Source of the DNA: a virus
Lineage: Duplodnaviria; Caudoviricetes
Virus record (IMG/VR): IMGVR_UViG_2799112248_000007
Location: 1 to 64,000 of that record
Strand: one strand, 5' to 3'
DNA length: 64,000 nt
A model generated the notes under the pieces. The model worked only from the letters and a program-made list of their open reading frames with translations, was not told the origin of the DNA and searched no databases. Below, in pieces: positions 1 through 35,262 of this stretch. Both the position numbers and the translations under genes were made by a program. Numbering within the stretch: position 1 is the stretch's first letter; every line of letters begins with the position of its first letter.

Positions 1-960
1 TTATATAGCAATGTCGTAAGAGAATCTACCATTATGTTTGTAATCTTGAACCTTAATATCATTCATTGTGAAGTCATAGAAGCTTTTTACTTCAGGGTTA
101 ATCCAAATTGTAGGAGGCTCATGTAACTCTCCCTTAATCTGTTTCTCGATAGTCTCTAAGTGCCTGTCATAGATATGTGCGTTATCAATGTTGATACACA
201 ACTCACCAACTTCATGACCTGTCACCTGTGCGATTAATCGGTGCAAAATTGAGTATTGATAGATGTTATAAGGGTTACCTAATGCCATATCATTAGAACG
301 GATATTTACAGTAAGTGCCAACTTACCATCAAACAGTTGCCAATGTGTTTCATACACACATGGTTGTAAAGCCATTTCTTGTAAGTCTTCTACACTCCAC
401 AGAGTAGTTTTAATTCTACGTGAGTGAGGGTTCTTTTTAAGTATGTACAATAAGTAATCCACTTGATTTAAGTCAACATACTCTATGTATTCCTCACAGT
501 AAGCCACAGCGTTCTCTAATTCTTCATCCGTAAGAACTACATCAGGCTTCTCAGATAGCTCTCCATTTCGAACCATCTCTAGGAATGTTCTGTCAGCTAT
601 AATTCGCTGGTATTTGTTTCGAAGTTGCCAACCGTAAGCATTTCCGATTGTTCCATCTTTAAGCTCCCATTCATCCCAAACGTGACAACCCATTTGCTGT
701 AGGTCAAAGACTTCGTTAGACATTTTCTGCCAAATCCAAAATAGTTCTTTAATTGGGTCTTTCAATGGCACTCGCTTTGTTGTTAACACAATAGCACCTA
801 TACTATTGTCAAACTTCATCTGTACATTGATAATCGCTTTTGTCGGTGCTTTCTCTCCATCTTCATAGACAGTTCGTACATGCTCAGGACTATCCATAAT
901 ACCATTATCAAGAATCTGTTGAATAATAGTGTTGTATTGCTTATCTGCTGTTTGGTACAT
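1..960 (-). CDS. thyA: Thymidylate synthase
   Basis: Motifs VWDEW, PHSRRI, MALQPC (catalytic Cys), RSNDMALGNPYN (Asn typical of dUMP specificity), HIYDRH. Confidence 0.95.
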   Translation of the reverse strand: MYQTADKQYNTIIQQILDNGIMDSPEHVRTVYEDGEKAPTKAIINVQMKFDNSIGAIVLTTKRVPLKDPIKELFWIWQKMSNEVFDLQQMGCHVWDEWELKDGTIGNAYGWQLRNKYQRIIADRTFLEMVRNGELSEKPDVVLTDEELENAVAYCEEYIEYVDLNQVDYLLYILKKNPHSRRIKTTLWSVEDLQEMALQPCVYETHWQLFDGKLALTVNIRSNDMALGNPYNIYQYSILHRLIAQVTGHEVGELCINIDNAHIYDRHLETIEKQIKGELHEPPTIWINPEVKSFYDFTMNDIKVQDYKHNGRFSYDIAI

Positions 961-1607
961 TAATAATCTCTATTCTTCAAAAATTTTCTCAAGCGATTTT
1001 TTACTCGAATAGCTTTCTGAGTTTTTAATCGTTGACTTATTGCGTTAGGGTGCTTGCCAAAATGTTTGGCAATCTCCCTCATTGTTTTCTCTTTTGTTCT
1101 AGCAATAAGAATATATAACAATTCATCATCTATATCTTTATCTGCTTTTAAGAACTCAATAACCTGCTGCTGAAGCAAGTTACCTTCTGCAGTTTCGCTA
1201 GTATTTTCATTTGCTTCTATTGTGTTGAGGAAAATTACCGCTTCTTCTTCATTGCCATTCATATTAAGTGGTGTATCAACACTCACAACATTAGCTAAAT
1301 CATATGATTGAGTATTAACTGTGCGTAGTGATTCTTTCTTTGCATTGGTAGAAATAGACCATGATATACAATTGATTGCATACGTTCGAAATGAACTTTT
1401 TCTAATAGGCTCAAAAGTTCTGATTGCATTTAGTAGCCCTATGTTTCCTAGTTGAACTAAATCATCTAGGTCAAGCATATGAGCTGTACAAAAGTATTGA
1501 TTATTAGGAAACTTTCTTCTAACTGTAGTAATAACTAGTCTTCGATTTAATAGAAAAACCTCTTCTTCTGTTAGGCCTTCCCACTCTGTATTAGAGAAAT
1601 TTTGCAT
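960..1607 (-). CDS. Phage sigma-70 family factor (SigF/SigG-like)
   Basis: Region 2 DDLVQLGNIGLLNAIRTFE..FRTYAINCI; region 4 HTH TMREIAKHFGKHPNAISQRL. Confidence 0.88.
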   Translation of the reverse strand: MQNFSNTEWEGLTEEEVFLLNRRLVITTVRRKFPNNQYFCTAHMLDLDDLVQLGNIGLLNAIRTFEPIRKSSFRTYAINCISWSISTNAKKESLRTVNTQSYDLANVVSVDTPLNMNGNEEEAVIFLNTIEANENTSETAEGNLLQQQVIEFLKADKDIDDELLYILIARTKEKTMREIAKHFGKHPNAISQRLKTQKAIRVKNRLRKFLKNRDY

Positions 1608-1653
1608 ATCGTTTACCTCTTAGAGAAGTTGCAGGGTACCCCCTGCTAATACA

Positions 1654-2532: not shown

Positions 2533-3543
2533 TTAAATATTGTACCCTTTTAAGTTGAATGTTTCGTCAGTGATAGGTGCAACATTAGCCATTGTATAAC
2601 TATTGCCCTTTTGCGAGAAGAAATCATGTGTCACTGAATCAGTACGAATACCGTTCATAACAATTGGGTCTACTTCTTCGTCAGGGAACATAGTATCTAA
2701 GCCTAAGTTCATTAGAGCTTTGTTTGCGTTGTAGCGTACATAAGCCTTAACCTTACCACCTACCCCTGTTTCAGCATACACATCATCTGTGTACTTTAAC
2801 TCATTCATATAAAGGTCTGCTAAAAGCTCATAGCCCCAAATCTTTAATTCATCCTGAGTTGCTTTATCAAACGTCTTAAACATTTCCTGAGCTTCGTAAC
2901 CTACTGCAACCCCATGAATTGATTCATCACGAACGATTAATGAGATAACCTCAGCACTATTTTTGAGTATTCCATGCCCCCCTAAATAAAGTGGATAGAA
3001 GAATCCTGAGTAAAACAGGAATGATTCTAACATCACAGAAGAAAAATGCGCTTTCCATAGTGAAACATCATCATCTTCTTTAATAGCTGAGTAAATTGCT
3101 TCAATCTTATTTGCTTTATATTGAAGATACGGATTGTTCTTAACCCATTCGAATACTTCATCAATCTGAGAGTTCGTTGCAAGTGTTGTAAAGATATAGC
3201 TGTATGATTTAGCATGAATTGCTTCGAACGCACCAAACAATGAGTACAATGCTTTCTGCTGTAGGTTTTTAACAAAGCGTGAAAGCTCATTCATACCTAC
3301 GTTAGTTTGAATTGTATCTAATAAAGTAAGCCCTGCTAAAACTCGCATATAGGTTACCTGAAACTCAAATTGCTTCCAAGCTAAAAGGTCTTTAGATACA
3401 GCTACTTCCTCAGGCAACCAAAACTGCTTGACCTGTTGTTTCCAAAAGACTTCATGTAAGCCTATTTGTTTATTCCAATTGACAGCTTCAAAGACTTTTT
3501 CAAATCTCTTTTGTATATACGCTCTTTCTGATAATACTTTCAT
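2533..3543 (-). CDS. nrdF: Class Ib ribonucleotide reductase beta subunit
   Basis: FWLPEEV, EAIHAKSY, LESFLFYSGF, RDESIHG, HDFFSQKGNSY. Confidence 0.97.
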   Translation of the reverse strand: MKVLSERAYIQKRFEKVFEAVNWNKQIGLHEVFWKQQVKQFWLPEEVAVSKDLLAWKQFEFQVTYMRVLAGLTLLDTIQTNVGMNELSRFVKNLQQKALYSLFGAFEAIHAKSYSYIFTTLATNSQIDEVFEWVKNNPYLQYKANKIEAIYSAIKEDDDVSLWKAHFSSVMLESFLFYSGFFYPLYLGGHGILKNSAEVISLIVRDESIHGVAVGYEAQEMFKTFDKATQDELKIWGYELLADLYMNELKYTDDVYAETGVGGKVKAYVRYNANKALMNLGLDTMFPDEEVDPIVMNGIRTDSVTHDFFSQKGNSYTMANVAPITDETFNLKGYNI

Positions 3544-3562
3544 TTATCTATAACACCTTCTT

Positions 3563-5656
3563 TTATACTGAACAACTTTCACATTCTTCAATTGTTTGCA
3601 TACGTTGTCTCACGTAGTAGACTGATTTAATCCCTTTTAGCCATGCGTAAATATACACCTTAGCTAACTGCTCTGTTGTCCAATTATCTTTAATGTACAA
3701 TGTCATTGAAATAGCTTGATCAACGTGTTTCTGAGCGATTGCGTAGGAATCAATCATCTTAAACATGTCCATATCGTATGCTTCAACATAAAGATGTTTG
3801 TTGTTATTATCAAGGTAAGGCATGGGGTAAATTGTTCTCGAATCAGCGTAGTCTCGCACTTCTACACGCTCTGTGATTGGTGACATTGAAGCACTTGAGC
3901 TTCTAATGTAACTAATTGAACCTGTAGGTGCAATTGCCAATCTGTATGCATGGAACATACCATGCTCTTTAACTTCTTGAGCTAATTTTTTCCACATGGC
4001 AATAGTAATGATTGGAACATTGCCTAGCGCCTGTTTAGCTTTTTCAGAAGTAATTACTAGTTCTTTTCTATAGTAATGCTCGAAGTATTCCCCACTTGCG
4101 TACTCAGAATCTTCGAAACGATAGAAGGTCTTCTTACGTTCCTTTGCAATCTCTACAGAAGCCTTAATAGAGTAGTAGTTTAATGCTGTGAAGAAAGCGT
4201 CAATGAACTCGTTGGCTTCCTCGCTTCCATACATGATACCCTGAGAAACAAAGTGACCATGAAGGTTCATAACACCTAATCCTACTGAGTGCATTTCTTG
4301 GTTAGCACGAGCAACCGCAGGCACATTGTTAATGTTAGTTAATAGAGAAACTTGTGTAAGCATCCGCATTGAAGCGTTAACTAACTTATTAAAGTCTTCT
4401 TCTTTAACTGCATTGTGAATATCAAGTGAACCTAAGTTACAACTTACATCAAGACCAATAATATCTACTTCATCATAATCATTGATTTCAGAGGTTTCCA
4501 TTAATTGCATGATTTCTGTACATAAGTTAGTGATTTTCACTCGCCCAATATTTTTCAATGGGTGTGCTTTGTTGACATTATCATCAAACATTTCGAATGG
4601 ATAACCACTCTCAATTTGAGATTTCTTAATGTCAGTGTATAACTTACGTGCATTAATGCGTTTCAGTTTTCGAATGTTAGGGTTATCAAGTAACTCGTAG
4701 TACATGTCAGTAATCGAAATTTCAGACATAGTTTGACCATACTCATTCTTAATATCATAAGGAGAGAATAGAACAATATCCTTATCCTGACGAGCTAACT
4801 CGAAGAAAATATCAGGGAAAATGATACCTGTACTTAAAGTAGCAAGGCGAATCTTTTCATCTGCATTTGGTTTCTTAGCTGAGATAAAGTCCTCAATATC
4901 ACCATGAAACACATTGAGCCAAATAACGCCTGAACCTGCTCGTTGACCTAATTGATTCGCATATGAGAATGAGTTCTCTAGCAACTTAGCAACAGGTATA
5001 ACACCTGACGCTCGGTTCGCAATGCCTTTGATTGGGTCCTTTGCACAACGTAAATCAGTTAGTGAAATACCAACCCCCCCACCTAGCTTCGATAGCTGTA
5101 GAGCATTTCCGATATTGTGAGCGATTGAGTTCATGTTGTCTGCCATAGCAATCTTGAAACATGACACAAACTCACCGCGAGCTTTCTTACCAACATTAAT
5201 GAAAGTTGGTGTTGCAGGTTGGTAACTACGCATTAAGTAATGAATCCAATCCTCAGCGTCTTTACGCTTACCTTGAGCTAGATATAAAGCAACTATAGCC
5301 ATTCTATCTTCATACCGCTCTAAGTAGCTGTTTCCATCACGAGTTTTTAGTGCATATGAGCTGTAGAACTTACTAGCACTCATAAACGTTGGGAATCTAA
5401 ACTTGTAATCATAAGCCAGTTTGAAGATTTTCTTGACAAACTTAAATGAATATTTGTCTAAGAATTCCGTTTCATAATAATTCTCACGCTTTATGTAGTT
5501 AATCTTTTCTTCAAGCGTATGGAAGAACATTGTTTTACGATTAATTTCTTCAAAGAAGAAGTCACTTGTAGCTTTTCTATCCTTCTCTCGGTCAATAATA
5601 CCCAACGTTTTGTAAGTATTAAGAACCTCATTGTTTAACATTAAATAATTTTTCAA
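3563..5656 (-). CDS. nrdE: Class Ib ribonucleotide reductase alpha subunit
   Basis: PATPTF, VSCF, TNLCTEI, SCNLGS, APTGSISY, C-terminal CESC; no intein or intron evident. Confidence 0.97.
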   Translation of the reverse strand: MKNYLMLNNEVLNTYKTLGIIDREKDRKATSDFFFEEINRKTMFFHTLEEKINYIKRENYYETEFLDKYSFKFVKKIFKLAYDYKFRFPTFMSASKFYSSYALKTRDGNSYLERYEDRMAIVALYLAQGKRKDAEDWIHYLMRSYQPATPTFINVGKKARGEFVSCFKIAMADNMNSIAHNIGNALQLSKLGGGVGISLTDLRCAKDPIKGIANRASGVIPVAKLLENSFSYANQLGQRAGSGVIWLNVFHGDIEDFISAKKPNADEKIRLATLSTGIIFPDIFFELARQDKDIVLFSPYDIKNEYGQTMSEISITDMYYELLDNPNIRKLKRINARKLYTDIKKSQIESGYPFEMFDDNVNKAHPLKNIGRVKITNLCTEIMQLMETSEINDYDEVDIIGLDVSCNLGSLDIHNAVKEEDFNKLVNASMRMLTQVSLLTNINNVPAVARANQEMHSVGLGVMNLHGHFVSQGIMYGSEEANEFIDAFFTALNYYSIKASVEIAKERKKTFYRFEDSEYASGEYFEHYYRKELVITSEKAKQALGNVPIITIAMWKKLAQEVKEHGMFHAYRLAIAPTGSISYIRSSSASMSPITERVEVRDYADSRTIYPMPYLDNNNKHLYVEAYDMDMFKMIDSYAIAQKHVDQAISMTLYIKDNWTTEQLAKVYIYAWLKGIKSVYYVRQRMQTIEECESCSV

Positions 5657-6036
5657 ACTTGTTCACCTGCAATCATTTTTCTATAGCTACTGCTAATAGT
5701 TGCTATATCATCCTGATTACCTCGCAGATCAATCATGCGTATTATTGGAACTCTTAACCACTGAGAGATCTCAATAGCAGAGCCACAAAAATTCCGCTTT
5801 CCAAAATTTGTGTTACCACTTGCGATTACACCTCTAAGATTTTCTCTATTTTCTTCATGTGAAGATAGAAATTGTCTTACTACCTCAGGCGCTTCCCCTA
5901 GCTTATCTGTGTAAGTTAGCAAGTAATAGGGGTCTTGAACAATAGAATGAGCTGTAATCTCCCTTACAGGAATAGACTTATCTAGTCTTCCTACAATATC
6001 TCTCACGTTACCTGTTCTACTAGCGTAGGCTATCAT
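5653..6036 (-). CDS. nrdI: RNR flavodoxin NrdI
   Basis: YASRTGNV, GVIASGNTNFG; position in operon. Confidence 0.93.
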   Translation of the reverse strand: MIAYASRTGNVRDIVGRLDKSIPVREITAHSIVQDPYYLLTYTDKLGEAPEVVRQFLSSHEENRENLRGVIASGNTNFGKRNFCGSAIEISQWLRVPIIRMIDLRGNQDDIATISSSYRKMIAGEQV

Positions 6037-6257
6037 GCCTTTTGAGCAATGAGGGCCTGAATTGAAGGAACGTCAGCATAATATTGACCTTCATCAAGTG
6101 CTATAGGGAGGCCCATGAATCCTTTTTCTTTTAGCTCCGCTTCTGCTTTTTCATCAAAGTCTAAGTTGACTTGTTCGTATGCCACCTCTGCTGAATCAAG
6201 AAGTGTTTTGATTAAAGTACACTTTGGGCATACTGTACGTGTATAAAGAATAATCAC
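6033..6257 (-). CDS. nrdH: NrdH-like glutaredoxin
   Basis: LYTRTVCPKC, GFMGLP; directly upstream of nrdI. Confidence 0.88.
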   Translation of the reverse strand: MIILYTRTVCPKCTLIKTLLDSAEVAYEQVNLDFDEKAEAELKEKGFMGLPIALDEGQYYADVPSIQALIAQKA

Positions 6258-6298
6258 GTTAAAAACATCCCCCTTTTAAATACACCATTATATAACTT

Positions 6299-6709
6299 TT
6301 AACAGTTGAATGTAAAAGTTGTTGATCCTAATGTTCGTTTACTTTGAGTTGTAGCTTCTTTTAATGCTTTTTCGATTGCTGTTGCAACCTCTTTATCAAT
6401 TTTATCTACAACTTTATGGTTCATTTCTTGCATTTTGCGATAACCTAAGATCGCGTACCCTGCTAGATCTAATAAAGTATCTTCGATAGCTTCATCTGAC
6501 ACTTGGCGAGTTTTACTTTCTTTGATTAGATTTTTGAATCGACTGAGTTTATCATCTAAACGAATAGCTAATGAAGATAATCCCCATTCGTCAATGTTTT
6601 TGTCAACATTGTTGCCATAATCAGCATTCTTACTTTTTAGTGTTTCCACTAATTTAGTCGTAATAATTTCAACTTCTGTTGCGAACCTTTGAGCGTTATA
6701 GTTTGTCAT
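6299..6709 (-). CDS. Nucleotide-modification-associated (DUF1599-like) protein
   Basis: KNADYG, IRLDDKLSR, IEDTLLDLAGYAIL. Confidence 0.75.
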   Translation of the reverse strand: MTNYNAQRFATEVEIITTKLVETLKSKNADYGNNVDKNIDEWGLSSLAIRLDDKLSRFKNLIKESKTRQVSDEAIEDTLLDLAGYAILGYRKMQEMNHKVVDKIDKEVATAIEKALKEATTQSKRTLGSTTFTFNC

Positions 6710-6787
6710 GTTTTTTCTAACCTCCTCTAAATTAAATTAACAACAATAAATATAATTATATTGCTTTTAATAAGTTTTTTAAAATAC

Positions 6788-9247: not shown

Positions 9248-10027
9248 CTATTTGCCGTTTCTTATCACTTTAACGTAAACAGTATGTCTACCTAAATTAT
9301 AAGCTGTTTGTTTGTCAGCTACAAGAATATCAACCTTGTGACCTTTGATTGCTCCACCAGTGTCCAAAGCAATTGCTCTAAATTTCTCGTAAGGTGTTGA
9401 AACCTCTACGATAGAGTACAAAGGAATAACACGAGGATCTACAGCAATTACTCGCATACCATCAACATAAATCGAACTACGAACATCATAGCCTGTTGCT
9501 GTAACACCTGAGCAACCGTTACAATATGGAGTGTAGTAGCTACCATTGAACGCTACACCATTAGTTGCTAGAGCTTGTTTTTGGGGTTGCGCATTTGTTT
9601 GTTGTTTTTGGTATTCTAATTGCTTTTGCCTCGCTATTTCTTTTTGTTGCTGTAGCATTGATTGACGCTTGCATTCAGCTTCCTCACGTGCTTTACGCTC
9701 TGCTTCTTCTTTGGCTTTGCGTTCTGCTTCAATCTTTGATAAACGAGCTTCTTCTGCTAATCTTGCTTTTTCATGCTCGATTCGCACTCTTTCTTCTCGT
9801 TCATATTGGAGTTTTTCGCCCTCAGCTTTGATTTCTTTTGCTGACTGTTCAGGTGATTTAAACGTTGGAACTAAAGCACTTGAAGGTAGCTCAATTTGTG
9901 TTTCTCCTTTTGTTATATTCGGTGCTTCTATTTCATTGCATGTTACATAAGAAACTAATGAAATAAAAACTAACCCTCCTGTCACTAGAGTTGATAACAT
10001 TACTTTTGATACCTTAGTGTTTTTCAT
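9248..10027 (-). CDS. Membrane-anchored 3D-domain cell-wall hydrolase (YorM-like)
   Basis: N-terminal hydrophobic anchor, coiled coil, IAVDPRVIPL..ALDTGGAIKGHKVDIL. Confidence 0.88.
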   Translation of the reverse strand: MKNTKVSKVMLSTLVTGGLVFISLVSYVTCNEIEAPNITKGETQIELPSSALVPTFKSPEQSAKEIKAEGEKLQYEREERVRIEHEKARLAEEARLSKIEAERKAKEEAERKAREEAECKRQSMLQQQKEIARQKQLEYQKQQTNAQPQKQALATNGVAFNGSYYTPYCNGCSGVTATGYDVRSSIYVDGMRVIAVDPRVIPLYSIVEVSTPYEKFRAIALDTGGAIKGHKVDILVADKQTAYNLGRHTVYVKVIRNGK

Positions 10028-10144: not shown

Positions 10145-13100
10145 CTAGTAAGCTCTTGCTCTTTCATCTTGAAGAATTAAGTCACCGTTTTTCTCAACAC
10201 CTAGTATTAAGTTTACAGTATGTTGAACCTCTTCACCTTTGACTTTGTAAGTTTTCAATACAAATTGTTCTTCTCTGCGGAAACCATTAAGCAACACTAG
10301 ATTGCCGCGAGTGAACCACGACTTCTCAATCACTTCTTTTTTCTCACCTTTTTTGCGTGAAATCTGTTTATCATAGTAAGCGAAATTTCCTGCATATGTT
10401 TTCACATTAACAACGCCATGAGGTGTTAAAACAGTAATTGTATGTCTTGTTTTGTTTCGGTCAAGTACAGTACCAACAATAGTAAAGACCTTCTGCTCAG
10501 GAATGGTTTTATCATTGAACTGCGAATATCCTACTACTACAGGTTTTTCATCAAGTTCGAAGAAGTTAACAATGTTGTATTTCTCCATATTCACATTCAT
10601 TAACTCATGATCATTCTCATAATATGAGATAGAATCCATTTCCCATTTAGATACTGAGCCTTTAGCTGTTTTGTACCACTCTCTCTTAAACATGGCTTCA
10701 TTATAAAGTTTGATAAACTCTTTCGTAGTTATTAGCTCTTTGAAAGGCTTTATCTTTTCATTATACTCTTTAGTGAATTGTTTCTCCGAAATCTCAAGAG
10801 TAACATAATTATATCCACAGATAGAACTACCGTCAAATGTTTTCTCATAAAATTGCTTGGCACTTTCATCTAGCCCTAGAATCTTATCTTTAGAAAACCC
10901 TGTTTTACTGCATTTGTTTGGTGCTTCTTCCACTCGAACTACACTCTTTGAGATATATTCTTTAAAGTTGAATAGCTCTTTATAGATATGCAAATCAGGA
11001 TTATCTAACAATCCTAAATCAATGATAGATTTCATGTTTTGCATATTCAAGCTCTCTTTTATGCCGATTTCTTTTAATAAAAAATCTCTCATAATATCTC
11101 TTGGTTGACCAAACTCATTAAATGCACCTGCTTTAATGAGCTGTGTAACGTGTTTCTTTTGTACCAGCTTTCCAACATACATACGCTCGTAAAAGTCGTC
11201 AAATGAAGCGTAAGGCCGATTAGCAATGATTGTGTGAGCTATTTCATCACCGATTCCTACAATACCTTTAAACGAGAAGATAATACGCTCGTTTACAATA
11301 TCAGGTACAAAGCCGAACTCAGCTCGATTGATTAATGGTTGTGATACATTAACACCGCGACCTTTCATCTTTCCTATGGCTTCTGCTACTTTACCATAGT
11401 TGGTTGACTTCTGTTTTGCCTCTTCTTCCACCTCCAAAGAGCCTGAGTTAACTGTTAGGCACGCTGTTTGCCAATACAGAGGATTGTAGTAGTAGCATAG
11501 ATTCGCTTCAACCATAGCTATCAGAGTATACGCTAGAGTGTGAGGAATCGAAAAAGCGTAACCTAACATTCGGGAAATCTGTAACCATAGATACTCGATT
11601 ACTTCATCACGGGTTCCACGTTCTCTCCCCCATAAGAATAGCTTTTGTTTTACTTCTTCCTGTACATCTGCCTTTTTCTTGGCAATACTTTTACGAAGGT
11701 AGTTAGCTTCTTTAACAGTGAATCCTGCTATGTTTTCATCCATAGCCATAAGCATTACTGCTTCTTGTGTATCAGCTACACCGTTTAAGGCTTTTAGGTA
11801 CTTCTCAAAAATAGCGACTTCTTCATCAGTTAAACCATATTGGTGCATTTCTTCATACCAAAGATTAATATCATTCTTGTATCGTATGAATGTATCAATT
11901 GGTTGTTCTTCGCCATCTGACATAAGTCGCATGATAGAATTCAATGATACAAGCTCAATAAGGTTTTTAGGTTGAGCTTTCTTGATAACAGCCTGACCTA
12001 ATTGAGTTGAAAACTGGAATAAGTCAATTATCTTATCTTCACCAATCATCTTAAATAACTCAGGGTTAGTCTTATCAATAATTTCAGGATGGAAGTATTT
12101 CTCGAATGTTTTTCGAAGTGTTCCTTGCCACTCAATTTCTCCATATTTTAACAAGAGTTCCATACACTCTTGAATCTTATCATTACCCTCAATTGTAAGA
12201 ATATCGAACTTGATAGCTCCACATGCCTGACTATCATCTAAGTTAAACTGTGTGATAGGTGTTCCATTTGGTGCTTTCATCATTGCGTTCATCTTGGTGT
12301 ATTCTTCATTTAGAACTAGTACACCACCTGCATGGATTGAGCGTTTGTTGATTAATCCCTCAACCTTTAAAGCTGTTTCTCGTAGTCGTGGATACATGTC
12401 GATTTCATCAATAAGTTGTTTGATAAGTTTTCTACCTTTTTCTTCATTACCATATAGACAATCTTTCAGTGACCACATATCGCCACGTTCTACAGGAATA
12501 AGTGAAGCAATATATAAACCTACATCACTATCAATACCTAAACCACGACAGGATGTTTGAACCGCAGATTTTGCTTTCTCAGTACCGAAAGTACATACTT
12601 GAATAACTTTTTTCTTACCAAAGAAATCTCTCATTCGGTCAAAGAGGAAGCCTTTTTTAGTTGAGGATACATCAATATCAATATCCAACGCTGAAATATC
12701 AGGTTTAGACTTATGTAAGTGTCGCCAATGGGGAACTTCAATACCATAAAGCAATGGGTTTACTTGAGTAACGTCAGTTAAGTAGTTGATTAAAAAGGCT
12801 ACAGCAGAACCTCGCCCTGCACCCACAATTGAACCTTCTTCTCGTGAAGCGTCACCGCAATCGTCACCCCAAATTATCTCAATGATTTTAGCAACTGTAA
12901 CATAATAACTGGCCATTGATTGATTTAGGATTATTGACATTTCCCACAGTTCTTCTAGCTCTATATTTATTCGAGCCATTACTTTATGAAATGCTTCTTT
13001 TGACATTCCACGATAAGGAATTTTCTTTTTGAAGCCCTTCTCGATTAAATGAATCAAGTATCTATCTTGTTCATTATCAGAGAGTGCCATTTTCTCAATG

Positions 13101-14182: not shown

Positions 14183-14451
14183 TTCATCTTCTCCAATCAA
14201 TATCAATAAAAATAGCTATAGCATTACGCTACTTTTTGTGTTTTATATAAGATCAAGCTTTCTTCGCACAATCTCGAAAATCATTCCAACCGCTTTTGAT
14301 ATTTCAGTGATGTTTTTTGATTAAAGTAATACATGTCTTTAATGTAATTTACTGAATCTTCCGACTGTTAAATCCAGCCACAGACAACACCATTTACAAT
14401 GTCCTCTTGCAACCAATCAGGCTAAGGCAATATTTCATTTGCTAAAATTTA

Positions 14452-22151: not shown

Positions 22152-22288
22152 TGTTTAACTCTCCATTTTCTGTTAAAATTTATTCAATAGAAGAAGGTTA
22201 TAAACCGCCTATTCAGAAAAGAAAGTGGCGATTGTCAACCTTCTTTTAATTCCCTAAATCTAAGATATTATTACATCACTTAAAAGAA

Positions 22289-23269
22289 TCAGTCTTCACC
22301 AAATAAATCATCTAAACCATCATCTTGTTTTTCATTTTTTTTAGCATTTGTTGGTTGAAAACCATTACCGAAGCCTGCTGTTGGTTTTGGCTTATCATCA
22401 GTTTTCTCTTTCTCTTTTAGTGCTGATAAATGACGCTCACGATTAGCTAATGCTTCTTTAAGAAGTGAAATGTCGAATACTTCTTTGTGAACACCTTCCT
22501 CGTATAATGTACCGCCTGTTGCGATAAACTCACGAGTACGCTCATAAGTTACGTCAGTTTTGTTTTCCCCAAAACCTGATTCAATTACACGTTCGATTTT
22601 TTTAGACTTGTTAACTAAATCACCGTAAATACGCACAGAAGCACGAGATTGGAAGTTGTCAGTTAAGTAGTCTTTACCGCCTTGTGGCAATGTTTCACCT
22701 GTTACAAATGTTAATGGAATTATTTTCCCACCATACAAAGGAACGTAAAGCTGAATTTTTAATCGACCTGTTTCATTTTCGTCTTTATCTGTTTCGGCTT
22801 TAAGTGATTTCACGATTCCCTCAATATCAAACTTAGCTTTTGGATTGAAATCTTTTGCTTCGCCTTTGTAGCGAGTAGGTGAATATCGACCACTAATTTT
22901 AGGGAATGATTTAACTTCTCCATCATTGCCTTTGTACTCATTTAGAGTTAATTTACCTTGACATTCAATACGTGAAGGCTCACCTTCTGATACTCCTTGA
23001 GCAATGTCAGCAACAGTAACTAGTTCATTCATGATAGTAGTTAAGGCTTTATAGTTTTTGTTTACTTCGCCTTTTTGTGTAAGCTCTTTTGCGAAGTAAG
23101 ACACAACTTGAGTTTCTTCCTCACTGATTTTAACAGTAATGTCACCGCTTATACATGTATAAGGCTTACCTATATTGTCTTTGAACTCTTTCTTTTCGAG
23201 TGTTGATTCTTGAGCGTAACCAACTATCTCAATTTTGTTTAATGCTTCTCGTAATAATTGTTCTGCCAT
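22289..23269 (-). CDS. Putative ssDNA-binding protein (YorF-like)
   Basis: Beta-rich, acidic C-terminal tail DDGLDDLFGED; synteny with Sak4. Confidence 0.65.
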   Translation of the reverse strand: MAEQLLREALNKIEIVGYAQESTLEKKEFKDNIGKPYTCISGDITVKISEEETQVVSYFAKELTQKGEVNKNYKALTTIMNELVTVADIAQGVSEGEPSRIECQGKLTLNEYKGNDGEVKSFPKISGRYSPTRYKGEAKDFNPKAKFDIEGIVKSLKAETDKDENETGRLKIQLYVPLYGGKIIPLTFVTGETLPQGGKDYLTDNFQSRASVRIYGDLVNKSKKIERVIESGFGENKTDVTYERTREFIATGGTLYEEGVHKEVFDISLLKEALANRERHLSALKEKEKTDDKPKPTAGFGNGFQPTNAKKNEKQDDGLDDLFGED

Positions 23270-23418: not shown

Positions 23419-23949
23419 TTATTTTGGCTTTATCATTTTGCTCAGTACCTCTTGCTCGTATTTCTGTAATCCAGCGTGATTATACATGTTGTACGCCATA
23501 CGAGCCATAATGTATGCGTCACGCACGTTATCTGAATGGTGTTCATATCCCCACTTCTTATACAGTGGTAGCACTAAATCTTCCTTCTTTGCGTTCCCTA
23601 TGTTGCTTGCAAACTTTTTCACCTGACTTGGCGTAGCGTCAGTATAACCGAACTTTTCAGTGAAAAGCATAGCTCTAATTAACCAACCTAGTCCATATTG
23701 GAAGTCTACTGCTTTACCCTTAGCACCGTAAGCAAAACCTTCAATAACAACTTTGTCATTTGGTTGCAAGTACGATTTAATTTGTTTTGCTATTCCAATC
23801 ATTCTAGCAGGGTCTTTTGTAGCTGTAGCTCGAATTTCTTCTTCTACAACTACCTCACCATTAGAATCAAGAATAACAAAACCTGTTTTAGTTGATGGGT
23901 CAATGCCCACGAACCTGATACTTTCTTTAGTCAAATTCCTTTTCTCCAA
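23419..23949 (-). CDS. ruvC: RuvC-like Holliday junction resolvase
   Basis: FVGIDPS, VVIEG, PSQVKKFA..GNAKK, DNVRDA. Confidence 0.85.
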   Translation of the reverse strand: MEKRNLTKESIRFVGIDPSTKTGFVILDSNGEVVVEEEIRATATKDPARMIGIAKQIKSYLQPNDKVVIEGFAYGAKGKAVDFQYGLGWLIRAMLFTEKFGYTDATPSQVKKFASNIGNAKKEDLVLPLYKKWGYEHHSDNVRDAYIMARMAYNMYNHAGLQKYEQEVLSKMIKPK

Positions 23950-24501: not shown

Positions 24502-24504
24502 AAA

Positions 24505-25290
24505 TCAACTTAAAAATGAAGACCACATACCACCTGTTGCACGTTGTTTAAGCCATATAGTCTTTGTTGTAGCCTTGATAGCATGGAACAACAGACCATA
24601 TAATGAATCGGCTTTACCTCGTTTATAGGCATTTATAACACTTAGAATACATTGGTAGTATTCATTTGAGTAATCTTCAATTTGAATAGCTTTATCAACT
24701 TTAGATTTAGCTTTATAAATAGTTCCTGCTAATTTATAAATTTCATCTGCGTCAAAGAAAGGGGCTAATACTCGTTGTAATGTTTCAGGTAATTTCTTTA
24801 CTAATCCTTTTTTAATTAAAGATTCCTTATCAGCTTCTTTTAAAGAAAGACCCTCTTTTTCTGTATCATTTGTTTTATTAATATTTTGAGTATTGATAAG
24901 AGTATCTTCGGGTGGACATTTGGGTTGGACATTTTCTTTGGCTGGTTGAATTACAATGATATTACTGCTTTGTCGCTTGTCACCTGTAGCTCGTTTTGTT
25001 TTAAACTTCTTCACAACGTTCAATTCTACTAATTTAGAAATAGATCTTTGAACCGTTTTATAGCTTATTTCTAGGCTCTCCGCGATTCTTTTCTGACAAA
25101 GGTAGCTCACCCCTACATACTTGCAAGACCACTGTGAAATGAAGTCTAGGACAGCATATGTTGATTTAGTTAATTGCTCCTTATTTAAGCGTTTATGCGC
25201 CATTACGGCTTTATTCATTTCCTCTATGGATGGGAATAATTGTAAAGACTCATATGTATCTTGTGTGTGTTGTAGTGTAATTATTGTCAT
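24505..25290 (-). CDS. HTH replication-initiator-like protein
   Basis: GVSYLCQKRIAESLEISYKTVQRSISKLVEL winged HTH; low-complexity linker with a short direct repeat. Confidence 0.65.
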   Translation of the reverse strand: MTIITLQHTQDTYESLQLFPSIEEMNKAVMAHKRLNKEQLTKSTYAVLDFISQWSCKYVGVSYLCQKRIAESLEISYKTVQRSISKLVELNVVKKFKTKRATGDKRQSSNIIVIQPAKENVQPKCPPEDTLINTQNINKTNDTEKEGLSLKEADKESLIKKGLVKKLPETLQRVLAPFFDADEIYKLAGTIYKAKSKVDKAIQIEDYSNEYYQCILSVINAYKRGKADSLYGLLFHAIKATTKTIWLKQRATGGMWSSFLS

Positions 25291-28986: not shown

Positions 28987-28993
28987 GAATGTA

Positions 28994-30016
28994 TCAATCA
29001 GAATATTCAACACCCTCTAGCTCACTATATAGTTTCCCTAATTGCTCATTAAATATTTTTCTTTTTAAGTCAGTAATATTTCTATAATAGTCTTTCCCAT
29101 TTGATGTTGCCATAATTGTATCGTAATGCTCTCCAATAGTTAAAAGCTCTGTTTTTCCCAGCTTTCCACTTTGTTTGAACAAAGTATATGCCATATACAT
29201 CATACCACTTTGAACAATGTCTTCCGCAGTTAAATAGACATTACCAAAGAACTCTTTAAAGAATACAAACTTTCTAGTGATAAAATGTCTGTCTAATACA
29301 TTACCACCCTGTCTTCCTTTTTTTGCTTTCTTAAAAATATATTCATATTCATTAAAAGGGGTCTCTATGATTTCATCTTGATTGTTTGTTCTATATGCTG
29401 TTTGTTTATCTGCCAAAATAAGTAATTTATAAAGATCTTCGCTTATTATTACTCGTCTAAATTCTTTAGTTCCTTCGTCATATACGTCTGCAACATAGTA
29501 GTCTTCTGAGCCTTTTTCCTCTATCACATGAAGATTTTCTTTTTTTAATGTTAATAATTCACTAAATGATTTACCTTTGATTCCCTCAAATAAAGCTAGT
29601 AACAATGCTTGGTCAGTGTAGTTATTTAATTCATCTAACATGAACATTAATTCCTCTTTGCTGTAGCGCTTGTTTTTCTCCTTTGCTACTACCTCACTTG
29701 CAAGCTCTGAATAGCTTTCAAACTCATAGAATGGGCTTGTAGTTGTCATATAATCAATATATCGTTTATAAGTATTAATATGATTGATAGCACTTGTTAT
29801 TGTTGAACACTCAGCGCTTAATAACATTTCTTTTATTTCTGCCCCTGTCATTTCTGACATATCTTTATTTGCTTGAAATTCAAAAGGTGCTACTTTTAGA
29901 AATTGCCAATAAATTGTTAACTGACTATCAACTGATTCATATTGATTAATAAATGCCTTTTTTTCTTCACCGTTATATAATTTATCAAATTTTAAAACAT
30001 TGTTTTGAATTGTCAT
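28994..30016 (-). CDS. mrpR: SPbeta master-repressor-like protein (tyrosine-recombinase fold, MrpR/YopR/SroF)
   Basis: LNNYTDQALLLALFEGIKGKSFSELLTL and FF..YLTAEDIVQSGMMYMAY resemble YopR; lacks the canonical R..HxxR set; directly downstream of a YopQ-like gene. Confidence 0.8.
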   Translation of the reverse strand: MTIQNNVLKFDKLYNGEEKKAFINQYESVDSQLTIYWQFLKVAPFEFQANKDMSEMTGAEIKEMLLSAECSTITSAINHINTYKRYIDYMTTTSPFYEFESYSELASEVVAKEKNKRYSKEELMFMLDELNNYTDQALLLALFEGIKGKSFSELLTLKKENLHVIEEKGSEDYYVADVYDEGTKEFRRVIISEDLYKLLILADKQTAYRTNNQDEIIETPFNEYEYIFKKAKKGRQGGNVLDRHFITRKFVFFKEFFGNVYLTAEDIVQSGMMYMAYTLFKQSGKLGKTELLTIGEHYDTIMATSNGKDYYRNITDLKRKIFNEQLGKLYSELEGVEYSD

Positions 30017-30019
30017 TAT

Positions 30020-31333
30020 CTATTTCCCCTTTAGCTCAATATCATCAAATAGTTTTATTATGGATTTTTCAATTTTATTAGCCACCTTACCGTTTACAAC
30101 TATTCCATAGTCTTTAAAAATCTTATTTTCCCTATTGAAGTCTATACCACTCAAAATATGATTGAGGTTGCTTAAAGGTATGTTTTGTTCTTTCATTCGC
30201 TTTGCTAATTTTATGTGTCCTATGAACATCTTGTTATAAAACATTAAGTTACCATTGTCTAGTTGTTCTAAATCTTCTTGGAAGTAGCCAAATAAGTAAG
30301 TAAAGTACTCTGATAAATAATTATAAATTCCAAGTGCTTCGAGTTTATTTTTCATTTCAAAAGTACTGTCAATTGCATTGGATATTACAGCGTAGCTCAC
30401 TAGTTCATTGGTGCCTTTTCCTAGTCTGTCTCTAGACGTTATTCTATCCTTCAATTCGCTATCTATGCGCAATTGTTGAACTACAAAGTCAGCGTATCTA
30501 CTTGCTTCAAGTTCCTGTATTCTGCTCTTAGGAATAGGGTTAGCTTTTGCTAGTTGGCTCTGATAGTTCTGAGCCTGTTTCGTTGTGAAATTAAAAAGAA
30601 GTCCAATAAAATTAAAATCCAAATCTTTATTCACTGAGTAAGCTCTTAAACAAGAAATCGTTCTGTGCATACCATCTAATATATCTAAACGTGTTCCGTC
30701 TGTTATTGTTAGAGTTCTTTCTTTGCTATTATAGATTAATTCTTCACTCTCATTAGAACTACCTAGACTGGCATTATACACAATATTTGTAGGAACTAAC
30801 GTACCGTTTAATAAGTGCTTAGTAATTTCTTTGACACTATTTTGATTGATAAAAGGGGCTTTGATAACTCTTTCTTTCCTTTTGACAAATTTTGGTTGCC
30901 TTTGAACTTCAAAATTATAATTCAGTTTATTACTATTATACAGTCTTGCTATGAGTTTATAATCAATTGGAAAAACATAACTACTTTGACCAATCATTGT
31001 TACATCATGTATCACAATTGGATAATCTATATAATCATTTTGCTTCGTGTTATAAAAAACTCTAATATCGTTCAATTCATTTTTATTAAATGTTTTTTTA
31101 AGGTCAAGACTCTCAATACCAAATTTTAAAAATATTTGTTCACCTATTAGTGCTATTACCCTTATATCTATTTCATCAAGTGTGTCAATATCATTAAAGT
31201 ATCTTTGAAGCTCCCCTTTATTAATACCATATATCGCTAATTGACTTTCTACTTCCCTTCTAGTTTTATTATTTTCATGTATTTTATGAATGTTATCTTT
31301 AACTGATTGGATAAAGTCATTGTAAGCACTCAC
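30020..31333 (-). CDS. yopQ: DGQHR/DndB-like domain protein (YopQ-like)
   Basis: YNFEVQR, ILDGMHR; synteny with mrpR. Confidence 0.78.
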   Translation of the reverse strand: MSAYNDFIQSVKDNIHKIHENNKTRREVESQLAIYGINKGELQRYFNDIDTLDEIDIRVIALIGEQIFLKFGIESLDLKKTFNKNELNDIRVFYNTKQNDYIDYPIVIHDVTMIGQSSYVFPIDYKLIARLYNSNKLNYNFEVQRQPKFVKRKERVIKAPFINQNSVKEITKHLLNGTLVPTNIVYNASLGSSNESEELIYNSKERTLTITDGTRLDILDGMHRTISCLRAYSVNKDLDFNFIGLLFNFTTKQAQNYQSQLAKANPIPKSRIQELEASRYADFVVQQLRIDSELKDRITSRDRLGKGTNELVSYAVISNAIDSTFEMKNKLEALGIYNYLSEYFTYLFGYFQEDLEQLDNGNLMFYNKMFIGHIKLAKRMKEQNIPLSNLNHILSGIDFNRENKIFKDYGIVVNGKVANKIEKSIIKLFDDIELKGK

Positions 31334-32693: not shown

Positions 32694-32817
32694 TCTCTCC
32701 TTAAAACTCAAAAAGTGACGTTCAGGCACAGTACTATACTTTTTTTGTATATAATTATATAATTTTTGAGGTTTTACTATTAATTATCTTAGTAGATGAT
32801 TGCAACTGTGCGTAACC

Positions 32818-35262
32818 TTATTGCAACTTAGCGACTTGCTTAATTACTGTCTCTATATCTCCTTTAGCTTTGTGTAATTCTCTAATCATATCACCTAAAA
32901 ATGTTTGACGGTTTCCACTAGCGTCTGTTCCGATTGCTTTAACTAAAGCAGATGATTGTACAAGTAATACACATTTCTTTGAAGCACGAGTGATTGCTGT
33001 ATAAACCCACTGTCTACATAAAAGTGAATATGCAGAGTAATCTAATACAACTACTACGTTTTTGATAGTTGAACCTTGTATGCGGTGACAAGTTACAGTA
33101 TAAGCTAGTTCCAAACTATCGAGTTCTGATTGTTGGTAAATTTTAATTCCTAGTCCCTCGAAGTTAATCATCAAGCATTGAACTATTTTATTTGTGTTAT
33201 AGTCAATTTTCTCAAACACATCTACAACTATCCCCATGGTACCATTGAATAAATCACCAGTGTTTGATGTTGGAATACTATCATAAAACTCAATTCTTTC
33301 CTCGTCAGTTTCCAATGTTAATAAGTATTCCTGAATCTCCTTTTCAGTTAACCCATTGTCTCGCACATTATAATAATGCTCTAAATCATCATAGTAGCTG
33401 ATTTCGTAGCTATTGCCCTTTACAATAACCTTGTCACCTTCCCTGAAGTCATATCCATTGTAAGACACAAATGGCTTCTCTAGGTCATTAAAGATTGATT
33501 GAGCTAGGTTATTAATTGCTTTTGCTGACATAGCACCACGTTCTTTCATAGCCACAACAACTTGGAATTCCATTAGATCTTGAGGTGTTTTGATATTCTT
33601 TGCTTGACCTCTTAAAACTCTCTCAACGTTTTCGGGCATATCTTCTTTGTTTTGATAGCTGACCATAATCATATCTTTGTTCTTTCCAAACTTTATCATG
33701 CCCTCTTGGTTAGCAGAGCAAACTTGAACACCTTCACGAATCTTTGTAGCTAATTCAATGATTCCTGAATCTTGGGCTTGACGGTGAACTTGATTTAACT
33801 CAATAGTTTTGAAGTATTGTGTTTGAAGTAAATCACGAAGCACATCCCCATGCCCAATACCTGAAAGCTGACCACTATCCCCTACTAAAATTACCTTAGT
33901 ACCATCTTGAATTTTAGATAACATTTGGCTAAACAGTCCTGCATCTACCATTGAACTTTCATCAATGATTATTACATCATAGAATGATTTACCATCACCG
34001 ATTTCTTCATCATCTGACTTCTTCACACCAATTCCAAACGTGCGGTGAATTGTTGCAGAGTCAATATCTTTCGATAAAAGAACCTGTGAAGCTTTACCAC
34101 TCAATGCACATGCTTTATAAGTAAGGCCTAAAGAGTTTAATACCTCGACAATCCCTTTGACTACAGTGGTCTTACCTGTACCACCTTTACCATTTATAAT
34201 AAACACACCGTGCAAAACACTCTCACGAATAGCATTTTTTTGCTCGTCAGTATATTTTACATTTAGCGCCGCCTCAGCGTCTTTGATTGCTTCATCAACA
34301 TCAAAGCCAATTGGTGCTTCATATCTAGTAGCAAGTCTCAGTAAATTTCGTAATGTGTTGCGCTCATTGTTGTACATAAGAATAGAAGAAATTCTCTTAT
34401 CCTCCTGTTGCCAATAGAAGTTTTTCTCACCATCCTCTGACTTCATATAGTTGCGAATATATGTGCCATTAACATCTAGTTCTTTGATAGCTTGTTCTAG
34501 GAACTCCCGCTCATTGACCCACGAATGCCCTTGATTTGCAATTTCATTAAAGTAGTATTCTGAGTAAGCCTTAATGCGTTTTGAACCAAACTTATCTTCC
34601 CCACGTATGAGAGCTACGTTGTCAATTCTTTTGAAGCTTAAACCTGAAACGATACATAGATAATATAAAGATTCTTTTGCTTTGAATAGTGCAATTGTAG
34701 AATTTCCAAACTTCTCAACAATCTTATTCAACATTCTCCCTGATGGGTTCAAGTCAGCAAGTTCCGCCATTAAAGCTCCTAAGTCTTTGTTTCGCTTGAT
34801 TTCTCTTTTAATCTTTAGAGCTGTAGCTTCCCCGAAACCCTTTATTGTAGTTATATCAATTATATTATCTTTAATATCATCTACAATCATATTGTTAGGA
34901 AAGGCTTCAAGAATCAGCTTTGATTGATACTCTGATAGAACAGCTTGTAGGAAGCGCTGTTGTGCTTCAACTGTGTCAAGTGCTTCTATATGAATACGAA
35001 TAATCTCATAGAACTCACCATACTTAGCGTCTGTCTGCAAATCCGATACTTCAATGTCATACTCTTGCCCCACATTCATAGCCAATGGAATGTTACCTCT
35101 AATAACAAAGTTGTTATAGCGATTCAGCTCAGGTTCGAAGTCACCCTCTATCTTAGTTGGTGCAACGCTCACAATGCCCCACATGCTTTCTTCCTTATAG
35201 TACAGCACCTTTGCAACCTTGACTTTTAAGCGGTTAGTATTTTGGTGTAAAATGTTTGGCAA
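32818..35262 (-). CDS. recD2: RecD2-like SF1B helicase
   Basis: GKGGTGKTT, IIDESSM, GDSGQL, VHRQ, YTVTCHRIQGS, YTAITRA. Confidence 0.93.
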   Translation of the reverse strand: MPNILHQNTNRLKVKVAKVLYYKEESMWGIVSVAPTKIEGDFEPELNRYNNFVIRGNIPLAMNVGQEYDIEVSDLQTDAKYGEFYEIIRIHIEALDTVEAQQRFLQAVLSEYQSKLILEAFPNNMIVDDIKDNIIDITTIKGFGEATALKIKREIKRNKDLGALMAELADLNPSGRMLNKIVEKFGNSTIALFKAKESLYYLCIVSGLSFKRIDNVALIRGEDKFGSKRIKAYSEYYFNEIANQGHSWVNEREFLEQAIKELDVNGTYIRNYMKSEDGEKNFYWQQEDKRISSILMYNNERNTLRNLLRLATRYEAPIGFDVDEAIKDAEAALNVKYTDEQKNAIRESVLHGVFIINGKGGTGKTTVVKGIVEVLNSLGLTYKACALSGKASQVLLSKDIDSATIHRTFGIGVKKSDDEEIGDGKSFYDVIIIDESSMVDAGLFSQMLSKIQDGTKVILVGDSGQLSGIGHGDVLRDLLQTQYFKTIELNQVHRQAQDSGIIELATKIREGVQVCSANQEGMIKFGKNKDMIMVSYQNKEDMPENVERVLRGQAKNIKTPQDLMEFQVVVAMKERGAMSAKAINNLAQSIFNDLEKPFVSYNGYDFREGDKVIVKGNSYEISYYDDLEHYYNVRDNGLTEKEIQEYLLTLETDEERIEFYDSIPTSNTGDLFNGTMGIVVDVFEKIDYNTNKIVQCLMINFEGLGIKIYQQSELDSLELAYTVTCHRIQGSTIKNVVVVLDYSAYSLLCRQWVYTAITRASKKCVLLVQSSALVKAIGTDASGNRQTFLGDMIRELHKAKGDIETVIKQVAKLQ

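Follow-up and report, generated by a model that had tools for sequence, protein, structure and literature searches.

The window analysed here, a stretch of 64,000 nucleotides, begins at the start of a 96,204-bp IMG/VR provirus record (IMGVR_UViG_2799112248_000007) and covers the left two thirds of an element of ~96 kb. By its gene content, the element is a derivative of an SPbeta-type prophage in a Lysinibacillus chromosome, in which the genes for the phage head are missing and those for replication and nucleotide supply have been kept. Its G+C content is ~34%, and gene direction is leftward from ~35.3 kb (the early arm) and rightward from ~35.5 kb (the late arm). Genes were assigned by Pfam and PHROG scans and by tblastn against SPbeta (NC_001884). 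Comparison of all open reading frames (ORFs) by tblastn makes the early arm collinear with that of SPbeta, with the same gene order and 33-53% identity; the matches are bnrdF, bnrdE, bnrdI, yorM, yorL, yorK, yorJ, yorI, yorH, yorG, yorF, yopR and yopQ. In the late arm the matches are yonK, yonJ, yomW, yomV, yomU, yomM, the tape measure gene, yomH, yomG, yomF and the endolysin gene. Near-identical copies of the element occur in Lysinibacillus sp. KCTC 33748 (G001) and L. zambalensis M3 (G002), each of which represents a separate species in the genome collection, and the three-genome comparisons below set these two beside the window record. The relatives that carry heads are a 166-kb viral contig (L008; YonJ identity 60%) and Bacillus sp. 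FJAT-22090 (G003; 58%).

The missing genes belong between the homologues of yonJ and yomW. This interval measures ~10 kb in SPbeta and holds yonH, yonG, the terminase gene yonF, the portal gene yonE, yonD, yonC, yonB, yonA and yomZ-X. Both head-bearing relatives have ~10 kb with ORFs of the right sizes after their yonJ homologue, and PHROGs call those of L008 terminase and portal. The element has a YonJ-like exonuclease gene (38983-40167, plus strand; phrog_284, 4.4e-64; tblastn match to yonJ) as the last gene ahead of the position of the relatives' head module, and from there a scar of 1.17 kb (40168-41334, plus strand) leads directly to the yomW homologue. By comparison with the relatives, what has been lost is ~10 kb that held the small-terminase-position gene, terminase, portal, scaffold/capsid genes and connectors. 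The scar retains an 81-aa ORF (40173-40418, plus strand), a 102-aa ORF (40679-40987, plus strand) homologous to a small gene two places before yomW in the relatives, a weak trace of the yonA-position gene (E = 0.006) and the decayed remnant of the yomX-position connector gene (40988-41334, plus strand). In L. zambalensis M3 this remnant still matches a 222-aa protein of L008 (3.7e-17); it is frameshifted in Lysinibacillus sp. KCTC 33748 and ~270 bp shorter in the window, so that the connector gene beside the scar is, on these alignments, decaying differently in each lineage. Among four public sequencing runs compared, the contigs of three (X5, X6 and X8) span the yonJ-yomW interval without a head module, and X6 and X8 have a further 225-bp loss in the remnant. 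These runs come from three studies and comprise a rhizosphere metagenome, an isolate and a sediment metagenome. Besides the contigs of these three further runs, the headless form is known from three assemblies, of which two represent different species.

Head genes were also sought with the terminase, portal and capsid-position protein of L008, queries of the SPbeta type only, in four genomes or records. They have no match in the 96-kb record, and none at E <= 0.01 in the whole assembly of Lysinibacillus sp. KCTC 33748; in L. zambalensis M3 they match only on another contig, within a second, complete SPbeta-like prophage, and in Bacillus sp. FJAT-22090 they match in place. The possibility of head genes hidden inside the element was considered and rejected: all ORFs >300 aa that were scanned or matched are assigned otherwise, and the head queries find nothing; a 435-aa ORF (63097-64404) outside the scan was placed by its similarity to neighbouring tail-tip ORFs. 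A first-pass annotation of the window had proposed that nothing is packaged, and had named the discovery of a head module as a finding that would overturn its view. The proposal now extends to the whole ~96-kb element, in which neither tblastn with SPbeta nor the L008 head-protein search finds a terminase, portal or capsid gene.

There is a very slight chance that head genes lie at a separate locus, in the manner of split gene transfer agents, and that complete particles are still made. The carrier assemblies are fragmented around the tail-tip arrays and the head queries are of one type, which leaves some room for such genes, but no match to the terminase, portal or capsid-position protein turns up in the KCTC 33748 assembly, where the right end of the element abuts host genes. 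Moreover, the connector gene is a pseudogene in all lineages seen, which is unexpected if heads were still joined to tails.

The replication and recombination genes of the early arm (1-35262) all lie on the minus strand. The largest encodes a DnaE-type replicative polymerase of 1353 aa (10145-14206), a YorL homologue with 53% identity to the SPbeta protein, in which Pfam finds PHP, DNA_pol3_alpha, finger and HHH_6 domains; its ratio of non-synonymous to synonymous substitution rates (dN/dS) is 0.14-0.19. Aligned to Taq Pol III alpha (2hpi), it retains the PHP HxH motif and three aspartate columns corresponding to D463, D465 and D618 of the Taq enzyme, which we take to be the catalytic residues. 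A YorM-like 3D-domain protein (9248-10027; PF06725; tblastn match to SPbeta yorM) is encoded on one side, and on the other a RecJ-like exonuclease for single-stranded DNA homologous to YorK (15570-17354; DHH and RecJ_OB domains; tblastn match to yorK). The DNA primase, a YorJ homologue (17567-18688), has no Pfam match and is identified by phrog_47 (1.4e-44) and 42% identity to yorJ (dN/dS 0.15-0.19). It is followed by a DnaB-like replicative helicase homologous to YorI (18689-20353; PF03796; 38% identity to yorI; dN/dS 0.10-0.15). A Sak4-like annealing ATPase, the YorG homologue (21174-22151; AAA_24), and a YorF homologue together occupy 21174-23269 (PF13479, 3.9e-37; phrog_2367; tblastn matches), ahead of a RuvC-like Holliday junction resolvase (23419-23949) whose match to phrog_159 is strong (1.4e-31) and whose Pfam RuvC match reaches only 0.0028 (dN/dS 0.03-0.04). 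The arm closes with a RecD2-type superfamily 1 helicase (32818-35262; AAA_30, HHH_RecD2 and UvrD_C_2; dN/dS 0.22-0.26).

The first-pass annotation had listed the polymerase, primase, helicase, Sak4, RecJ, RuvC and RecD2 genes as open, as they all are, and the Pfam and PHROG scans back their identities. Its putative helicase loader (20366-21097) does not survive: this gene is a YorH homologue (tblastn match to yorH; phrog_4680, function unknown) with only weak zinc-finger matches in Pfam and nothing pointing to a loader function. A gene beyond that list is the helix-turn-helix, O-like protein encoded at 24505-25290, a candidate replication initiator (phrog_1835, 3.3e-55; weaker matches to the replication-initiator phrogs 428, 391, 8102 and 270; dN/dS 0.07-0.11). 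In Bacillus sp. FJAT-22090 the DnaB-like helicase homologue is present as two ORFs ~1 kb apart (C22, ~176.9-179.5 kb; L041 6892-9533), possibly split by an inserted mobile element.

The genes for deoxynucleoside triphosphate (dNTP) supply occupy the left end of the early arm, again on the minus strand. The thymidylate synthase gene thyA (1-960; PF00303, 2.5e-74; dN/dS 0.10-0.16), with a full-length ORF in all three genomes, is the leftmost gene of the element, and host genes begin within ~480 bp of it in two relatives. A DUF1599-nrdH-nrdI-nrdE-nrdF operon (2533-6709; Pfam and SPbeta bnrdI/E/F matches) encodes a class Ib ribonucleotide reductase (RNR) with its flavodoxin and a glutaredoxin-like partner: nrdF (2533-3543), nrdE (3563-5656; dN/dS 0.08-0.11), nrdI (5653-6036) and the nrdH-like glutaredoxin gene (6033-6257). 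All four have near full-length Pfam matches (PF00268, PF02867/PF08343/PF00317, PF07972 and PF00462, respectively; DUF1599 is PF07659). The reported openness of thyA and nrdHIEF stands. The gene previously called dUTPase-like (1654-2382) is open as well; by PF01503 (6.3e-13) it encodes a nucleoside triphosphate pyrophosphohydrolase of the MazG/PRA-PH type (dN/dS 0.14-0.17).

Homologues of the SPbeta master repressor MrpR (YopR) and of YopQ, together the lysogeny switch, are encoded on the minus strand at 28994-31333 (PF22823 and PF22822 above cut-off; tblastn matches to yopR and yopQ); the MrpR homologue carries both its Pfam domains, and the YopQ homologue is DndB-like. No tblastn match at 1e-5 is found for yopP, aimR or yokI, of which divergent versions would escape. 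Domain scans find two sigma-like proteins in the element, one of them a sigma-70-like factor with region 2 (960-1607, minus strand; PF04542, 1.2e-9; dN/dS 0.05-0.11). A promoter-like 19-mer with a TATAAT core recurs at 15 sites with up to three mismatches, as against 0.26 expected, always oriented with local transcription. The sites are at 6751, 8767, 9214, 17365, 23348, 24484, 26483, 28847, 31937, 32750 and 35325 on the plus strand and at 36434, 37015 and 60927 on the minus strand; the fifteenth, at 10795 inside dnaE and with three mismatches, is probably a chance match. The motif stands upstream of the nrd operon (6751), recJ (17365), yorF, the RuvC-like gene, RecD2 and late-arm genes, and is kept at syntenic sites in Lysinibacillus sp. 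KCTC 33748 and L. zambalensis M3; it is not found in the host flanks, in Bacillus sp. FJAT-22090 or in SPbeta. Early promoters of SPbeta, those ahead of yorE and yorM among them, contain a repeated element bound by MrpR (PMC10516654), and by analogy the 19-mer may be an early promoter or the operator of the MrpR homologue. Between the two arms lies a divergent control region (35263-35496) with the 19-mer at 35325 and, between the RecD2 gene and the first late-arm gene, about three copies of an AT-rich repeat of 16-17 nt (35332-35402).

The early arm is under clear constraint. Of its 26 ORFs of at least 60 aa, 24 have full-length counterparts in both Lysinibacillus sp. KCTC 33748 and L. zambalensis M3, the exceptions being one ORF of 65 aa and one of 82 aa. 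Pooled dN/dS for the three genome pairs (Nei-Gojobori, ~5300 synonymous sites) is 0.154, 0.151 and 0.150 at a synonymous divergence (dS) of 0.113, 0.132 and 0.097. As a control, 12 host genes of the left flank, compared between KCTC 33748 and M3, give 0.158 at a dS of 0.162. The purifying selection that the first-pass annotation called for is thus present, and by this measure the replication genes are as constrained as host genes. Each genome pair shows six or seven indels in the retained genes (33.4 kb), every one of them a multiple of three in length, although the lack of frame-breaking indels is partly by construction because the set was chosen for having counterparts. In the spacers, by comparison, each pair shows 92-119 frame-breaking indels over 11.4-12.2 kb, a difference that stands out even so, given that 24 of the 26 ORFs are retained.

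The earlier description of the DNA between the genes as decayed is borne out in part, by these indels, by the coverage of only 73% of 1-35262 by conserved genes of at least 60 aa, and by four accessory ORFs, intact in KCTC 33748, that are truncated or frameshifted in the window (~8.5-8.75, 14.4-14.7, 25.7-25.9 and 32.5-32.7 kb). It fits less well with the conserved 19-mer in the spacers, and no remnants of a head-bearing relative's accessory genes are detectable there. The interval between the RuvC and MrpR homologues measures 12.7 kb in Bacillus sp. FJAT-22090 and 5 kb in the window, and that between the YopQ and RecD2 homologues 23.5 kb and 1.5 kb, respectively; when the ORFs of FJAT-22090 are compared with the record by tblastn, no accessory-gene remnant is found in the big spacers.

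Since the scar is common to lineages that differ at an early-arm dS of ~0.10-0.13, the loss of the head predates the split of these lineages, and the constraint therefore acted on a headless element. This bears on one alternative, a plain defective prophage: the head would have been deleted by accident, mutation would simply not have reached the other genes yet, and the low dN/dS would be a legacy of a phage past or of the recent spread of one defective copy. Such a history has a slim chance of being correct. It would accommodate the decay of some accessory ORFs and of the connector remnant, the coding density of 73% and the presence of a YorL-type polymerase in only 2 of the 49 Lysinibacillus species genomes, but the loss is older than the split, and the spacers have gained ~9-10 frame-breaking indels per kb while 24 of the 26 early-arm ORFs have stayed full length.

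A second alternative explains the constraint gene by gene through benefit to the host: RNR and ThyA would be spare copies for dNTP synthesis, and RecJ, RecD2, Sak4 and RuvC would serve in repair or defence. The equality of dN/dS between early arm and host flank speaks for this. The RNR of SPbeta has been proposed to meet an increased dNTP demand (PMC8270828), and a spare RNR copy could be co-opted by the host. We nevertheless consider host benefit an unlikely account, because the constraint is uniform and includes genes of no obvious use outside an element-specific fork, namely the O-like initiator (0.07-0.11), primase (0.15-0.19), DnaB-like helicase (0.10-0.15) and DnaE (0.14-0.19). In addition, these genes share the promoter-like motif with the rest of the early arm, which together with the MrpR-type repressor points to silence in normal growth.

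The element lies in the chromosome, between a gene for a HAD hydrolase and a phage-type copy of yfkB, with host genes on both sides of it on the same contigs. To the left of thyA, the host genes of KCTC 33748 and M3 are 94% identical and encode the HAD hydrolase, a staphylopine-type dehydrogenase, ribosomal protein L25, a LysR regulator and transporters. On the right, in KCTC 33748, the last adhesin gene adjoins the yfkB-type radical-SAM gene, after which host genes follow, including a GerA operon; this agrees with the end of the record at 96,204. The question raised by the first-pass annotation of whether the contig is chromosomal or plasmid is settled by these flanks in favour of the chromosome, and its suggestion of a persisting autonomous, plasmid-like replicon is rejected on the same grounds. 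Judged from its junctions, the headless element is fixed in the chromosome of a few soil Lysinibacillus.

No serine integrase is found, in that PF00239 (Resolvase) has no match in the record and the left junction holds no recombinase remnant; nor are attachment (att) sites apparent, no repeat longer than 10 bp being shared between the two junction spacers of KCTC 33748. Apparently, then, the element is locked in place, and without a serine integrase or att repeats any replication would have to fire in place, in line with the first-pass proposal. In most of the 49 Lysinibacillus species genomes the HAD and yfkB neighbours are ~290 bp apart. The element has a second yfkB copy of the kind brought by a prophage that occupies the same site in another species (G004): there the insertion splits the host yfkB, a gene for a 607-aa serine recombinase lies beside the fragment, and the prophage's own complete yfkB is at the far end. 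In two further genomes (G012 and G013) the same yfkB type is kept only 0.9-3.8 kb from the HAD gene.

Taken together, these features lead to a reading to which we give an even chance: the element is a headless prophage derivative whose replisome is kept under selection, and in which induced in-place replication drives the output of the late tail and lysis genes. Induction would consist in loss of repression by MrpR, upon which the early regulon would fire from the shared promoter-like motif. The element's initiator and replisome would then start replication in place, since excision seems impossible. This would raise the number of template copies of the late tail and lysis genes, or license their transcription; cell lysis would finally free headless tails. 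The in-place amplification after induction is what we infer from the gene content. The replisome and dNTP genes would be kept because late-gene output depends on them, as knock-outs have shown for rhizoviticin, a tailocin of Allorhizobium vitis VAR03-1: deletion of its initiator-like, DnaB-like helicase or RuvC genes abolishes killing and lowers late-gene transcripts, according to PMC10811719. SPbeta lacking SprA or SprB is reported to lyse the cell still after induction (PMC10516654). With the rhizoviticin knock-outs, this makes an in-place mechanism plausible.

In a bolder form, which we put forward only tentatively, the element would be a self-amplifying tail factory, left over from a giant siphovirus and since domesticated. 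Upon induction, its own complete replisome and nucleotide factory would over-replicate the ~96-kb locus in place, and very long headless tails would thereby be mass-produced and armed from a large set of exchangeable adhesin cassettes. If so, the bacterium would be using a phage's replication machinery to raise the gene dosage of a weapon, and host genes nearby would be amplified along with it.

A number of observations weigh against in-place replication in the service of tail output. The replisome is not strictly self-sufficient: the gene once read as encoding a single-stranded DNA-binding protein (SSB) is not supported, PF00436 having no match in the 96-kb record, and no clamp or clamp loader turned up, in scans of which none was aimed at those. 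The divergent region at 35263-35496 is at best a candidate origin or promoter hub, AT-rich repeats not being decisive for an origin. The YomM-like tyrosine recombinase of the late arm keeps an intact Phage_integrase domain and could offer another route of excision. Two other species carry different large SPbeta-like prophages at the HAD/yfkB site, both with a terminase homologue (G004 C1, 3.243-3.402 Mb, 155 kb; G025 C31, 403-536 kb, 132 kb); the site is an integration hot spot, so that a shared position alone is no proof of vertical descent. The polymerase is rare among Lysinibacillus genomes, as noted above. A comparison between lineages does not tell selection on the host from selection on a selfish element. 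Finally, dS in the distal tail genes reaches 0.6-0.7, as against ~0.1 elsewhere, which indicates that the element is not strictly clonal and takes part in DNA exchange with other phages.

Some of these points would suit a helper-dependent element: induction, or the arrival of a related SPbeta-like phage by infection, would set off its replication, and the helper's heads would take up its DNA or adjacent host DNA. The replisome would then be retained for the element's own horizontal spread. In L. zambalensis M3 there is a possible helper, a complete SPbeta-like prophage in which terminase, portal and capsid-position genes are all present and whose tail-tip protein is 72% identical to one of the element. 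Exchange with other phages is evident from the very high dS of the distal tail genes, and the position at which SPbeta-like genomes open (yonR-yonP; 10.1101/2021.11.22.469490) matches that of the retained divergent region at ~35-38 kb. Set against this, the carrier KCTC 33748 has no SPbeta-type terminase, portal or capsid-position gene in its assembly (L008 queries), and the element has neither an integrase nor att repeats for excision. We know of no precedent for a head-borrowing element that keeps a 2383-aa tape measure and its own tail, and regard dependence on a helper as quite unlikely.

Among known systems, classical tailocins (F-type pyocin, monocin and the R-type pyocins) are headless sets of tail genes in the chromosome, with their own lysis genes and repressor-controlled, damage-type induction. 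Their loci measure 10-25 kb and are not known to carry replication, recombination or nucleotide-metabolism genes, and a tape measure of 2383 aa implies a tail much longer than theirs. The element, as predicted from its genes, resembles an F-type tailocin in its chromosomally fixed headless tail module and its own lysis gene, and departs from that definition in possessing replication genes. Classical F-type examples are listed in PMC10811719.

The likeness to SPbeta comprises the early-arm order yorF-yorM with bnrdI/E/F, the yopQ/yopR switch, yonK, yonJ, the yomW-yomF tail genes and the amidase endolysin. In contrast with SPbeta, a RecD2 helicase occupies the yonO position, the accessory DNA is much reduced, the element encodes ThyA and two sigma-like factors, and the host is Lysinibacillus. 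Tblastn with SPbeta and the Resolvase search find no homologue in the element of yonG-yonF-yonE-yonD-yonC-yonB-yonA-yomZ, SprA/SprB, the YonO RNA polymerase, AimR/AimP or the sublancin genes. By gene content the element therefore belongs with SPbeta-like phages in its early and tail arms and falls outside them in its head module and in the terminal serine recombinase and att sites.

The closest parallel is rhizoviticin, an alphaproteobacterial F-type tailocin of 22.7 kb, chimeric from two phages, which its authors see as a stage between prophage and tailocin (Ishii et al. 2024, PMC10811719). Like the element, it is described there as a prophage-derived headless locus for a non-contractile tail, with an early region that includes initiator-like, DnaB-like helicase and RuvC genes, a sigma factor and a repressor (PMC10811719). 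It differs in its LexA-like control, its integrase remnant and its use of host polymerase and dNTP supply, as far as that source describes (PMC10811719). The element, at ~96 kb, is about four times larger, has no integrase remnant at its ends, and encodes its own DnaE, primase, RecJ, RecD2, RNR, ThyA and MazG-like proteins. The earlier statement that characterised tailocin loci lack replication genes is outdated, given that rhizoviticin is reported both to keep and to need such genes (PMC10811719); the same paper supports the direction of the first-pass idea and lowers its novelty. With its headless tail, replication-related early region and repressor, the element fits best, on gene content, beside rhizoviticin as a transitional locus.

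In-place replication of a prophage before excision is known from lateral transduction in Staphylococcus aureus and from the escape replication of excision-defective lambdoid prophages, where the origin of the integrated prophage fires and amplifies both prophage and flanks. Those phages are complete and then package DNA, whereas the element has no packaging genes and excision seems impossible. The run-off replication (ROR) module of the Bartonella agent BaGTA, in which a domesticated phage origin amplifies a chromosomal region (PMC2697382; bioRxiv 10.1101/2024.11.20.624540), offers a similar coupling of amplification to phage-derived particle genes, in a self-sacrificing subpopulation (bioRxiv 10.1101/2024.11.20.624540). 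There, according to the same preprint, the amplified DNA is packaged into capsids and the modules come from different phages (bioRxiv 10.1101/2024.11.20.624540); the element has no capsid genes, both its arms come from one phage type, and its amplification is only predicted. Titles and abstract openings in the tailocin literature give no account of such an element in Lysinibacillus or of SPbeta origin.

The transition from prophage to tailocin, and what survives it, is known from very few cases, and tailocins are usually described as minimal tail-plus-lysis cassettes. The element provides a large and clean natural example, in which head and integrase are gone, the connector is rotting, and 35 kb of replication and nucleotide genes are tightly held in several lineages. 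Considered with the rhizoviticin knock-outs, it suggests by analogy that phage replication may often be needed for late-gene output and may be retained long after packaging is lost. The idea would also bear on the dosage and transfer of host genes nearby, both of which in-place amplification might raise. The headless, replisome-retaining element is real and well supported, and the amplification mechanism proposed for it can be tested.

The late arm encodes, to judge from its genes, a long, non-contractile tail with arrays of tail-tip adhesins. At its head is a gene-poor stretch of 1.5 kb that contains a tRNA-Arg gene (anticodon TCT; 37369-37445). Beyond the scar, homologues of YomW, YomV and YomU, two small ORFs and the YomM-like tyrosine recombinase occupy 41335-45439 (plus strand; tblastn with SPbeta; phrog_2729, virion structural; Phage_integrase domain); dN/dS is 0.08-0.22 for the three Yom homologues and the recombinase and up to 0.66 for a 152-aa ORF (44008-44466). 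The tape measure, Dit-like ORFs, a Tal-like minor tail protein, a PAAR-like protein and a YomF homologue follow at 45426-60153 (plus strand). The tape measure of 2383 aa carries M23 peptidase and tail lysozyme domains, and the Tal-like protein has 1335 aa. Inside the tape measure gene, nucleotide identity among the three genomes falls from 93-95% (up to ~48.27 kb) to 78-82% (after ~48.48 kb), and dS rises from ~0.1 to the 0.6-0.7 of the distal tail genes from ~48.3 kb onward; the interval 48271-48483 looks like a recombination break at which the distal tail module was swapped. The Dit homologue (52578-54482) is spread over overlapping ORFs of 199, 225 and 220 aa, each of which is present in all three genomes. 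Of the outer two, one corresponds to the N-terminal and the other to the C-terminal part of a single 261-aa protein of Bacillus sp. FJAT-22090, and the middle one matches a 'head decoration' PHROG.

No holin was identified in the element; its lysis gene encodes an amidase endolysin with Amidase_2 and SPOR domains (record 75595-76353). Arrays of proteins with F5/8-type-C (discoidin) and Laminin_G_3 domains flank the endolysin gene on both sides (record 60-96 kb, of which 60171-64000 falls in the window), and each adhesin run closes with a LamG protein of ~777 aa. Further adhesin copies lie on at least four short contigs of the KCTC 33748 assembly, and assemblies break there. The second prophage of L. 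zambalensis M3, the tail-tip protein of which is 72% identical to the last LamG protein of the element, lies on contig C107 at ~92-138 kb and has a terminase 47% identical to SPbeta YonF, a portal and tail genes.

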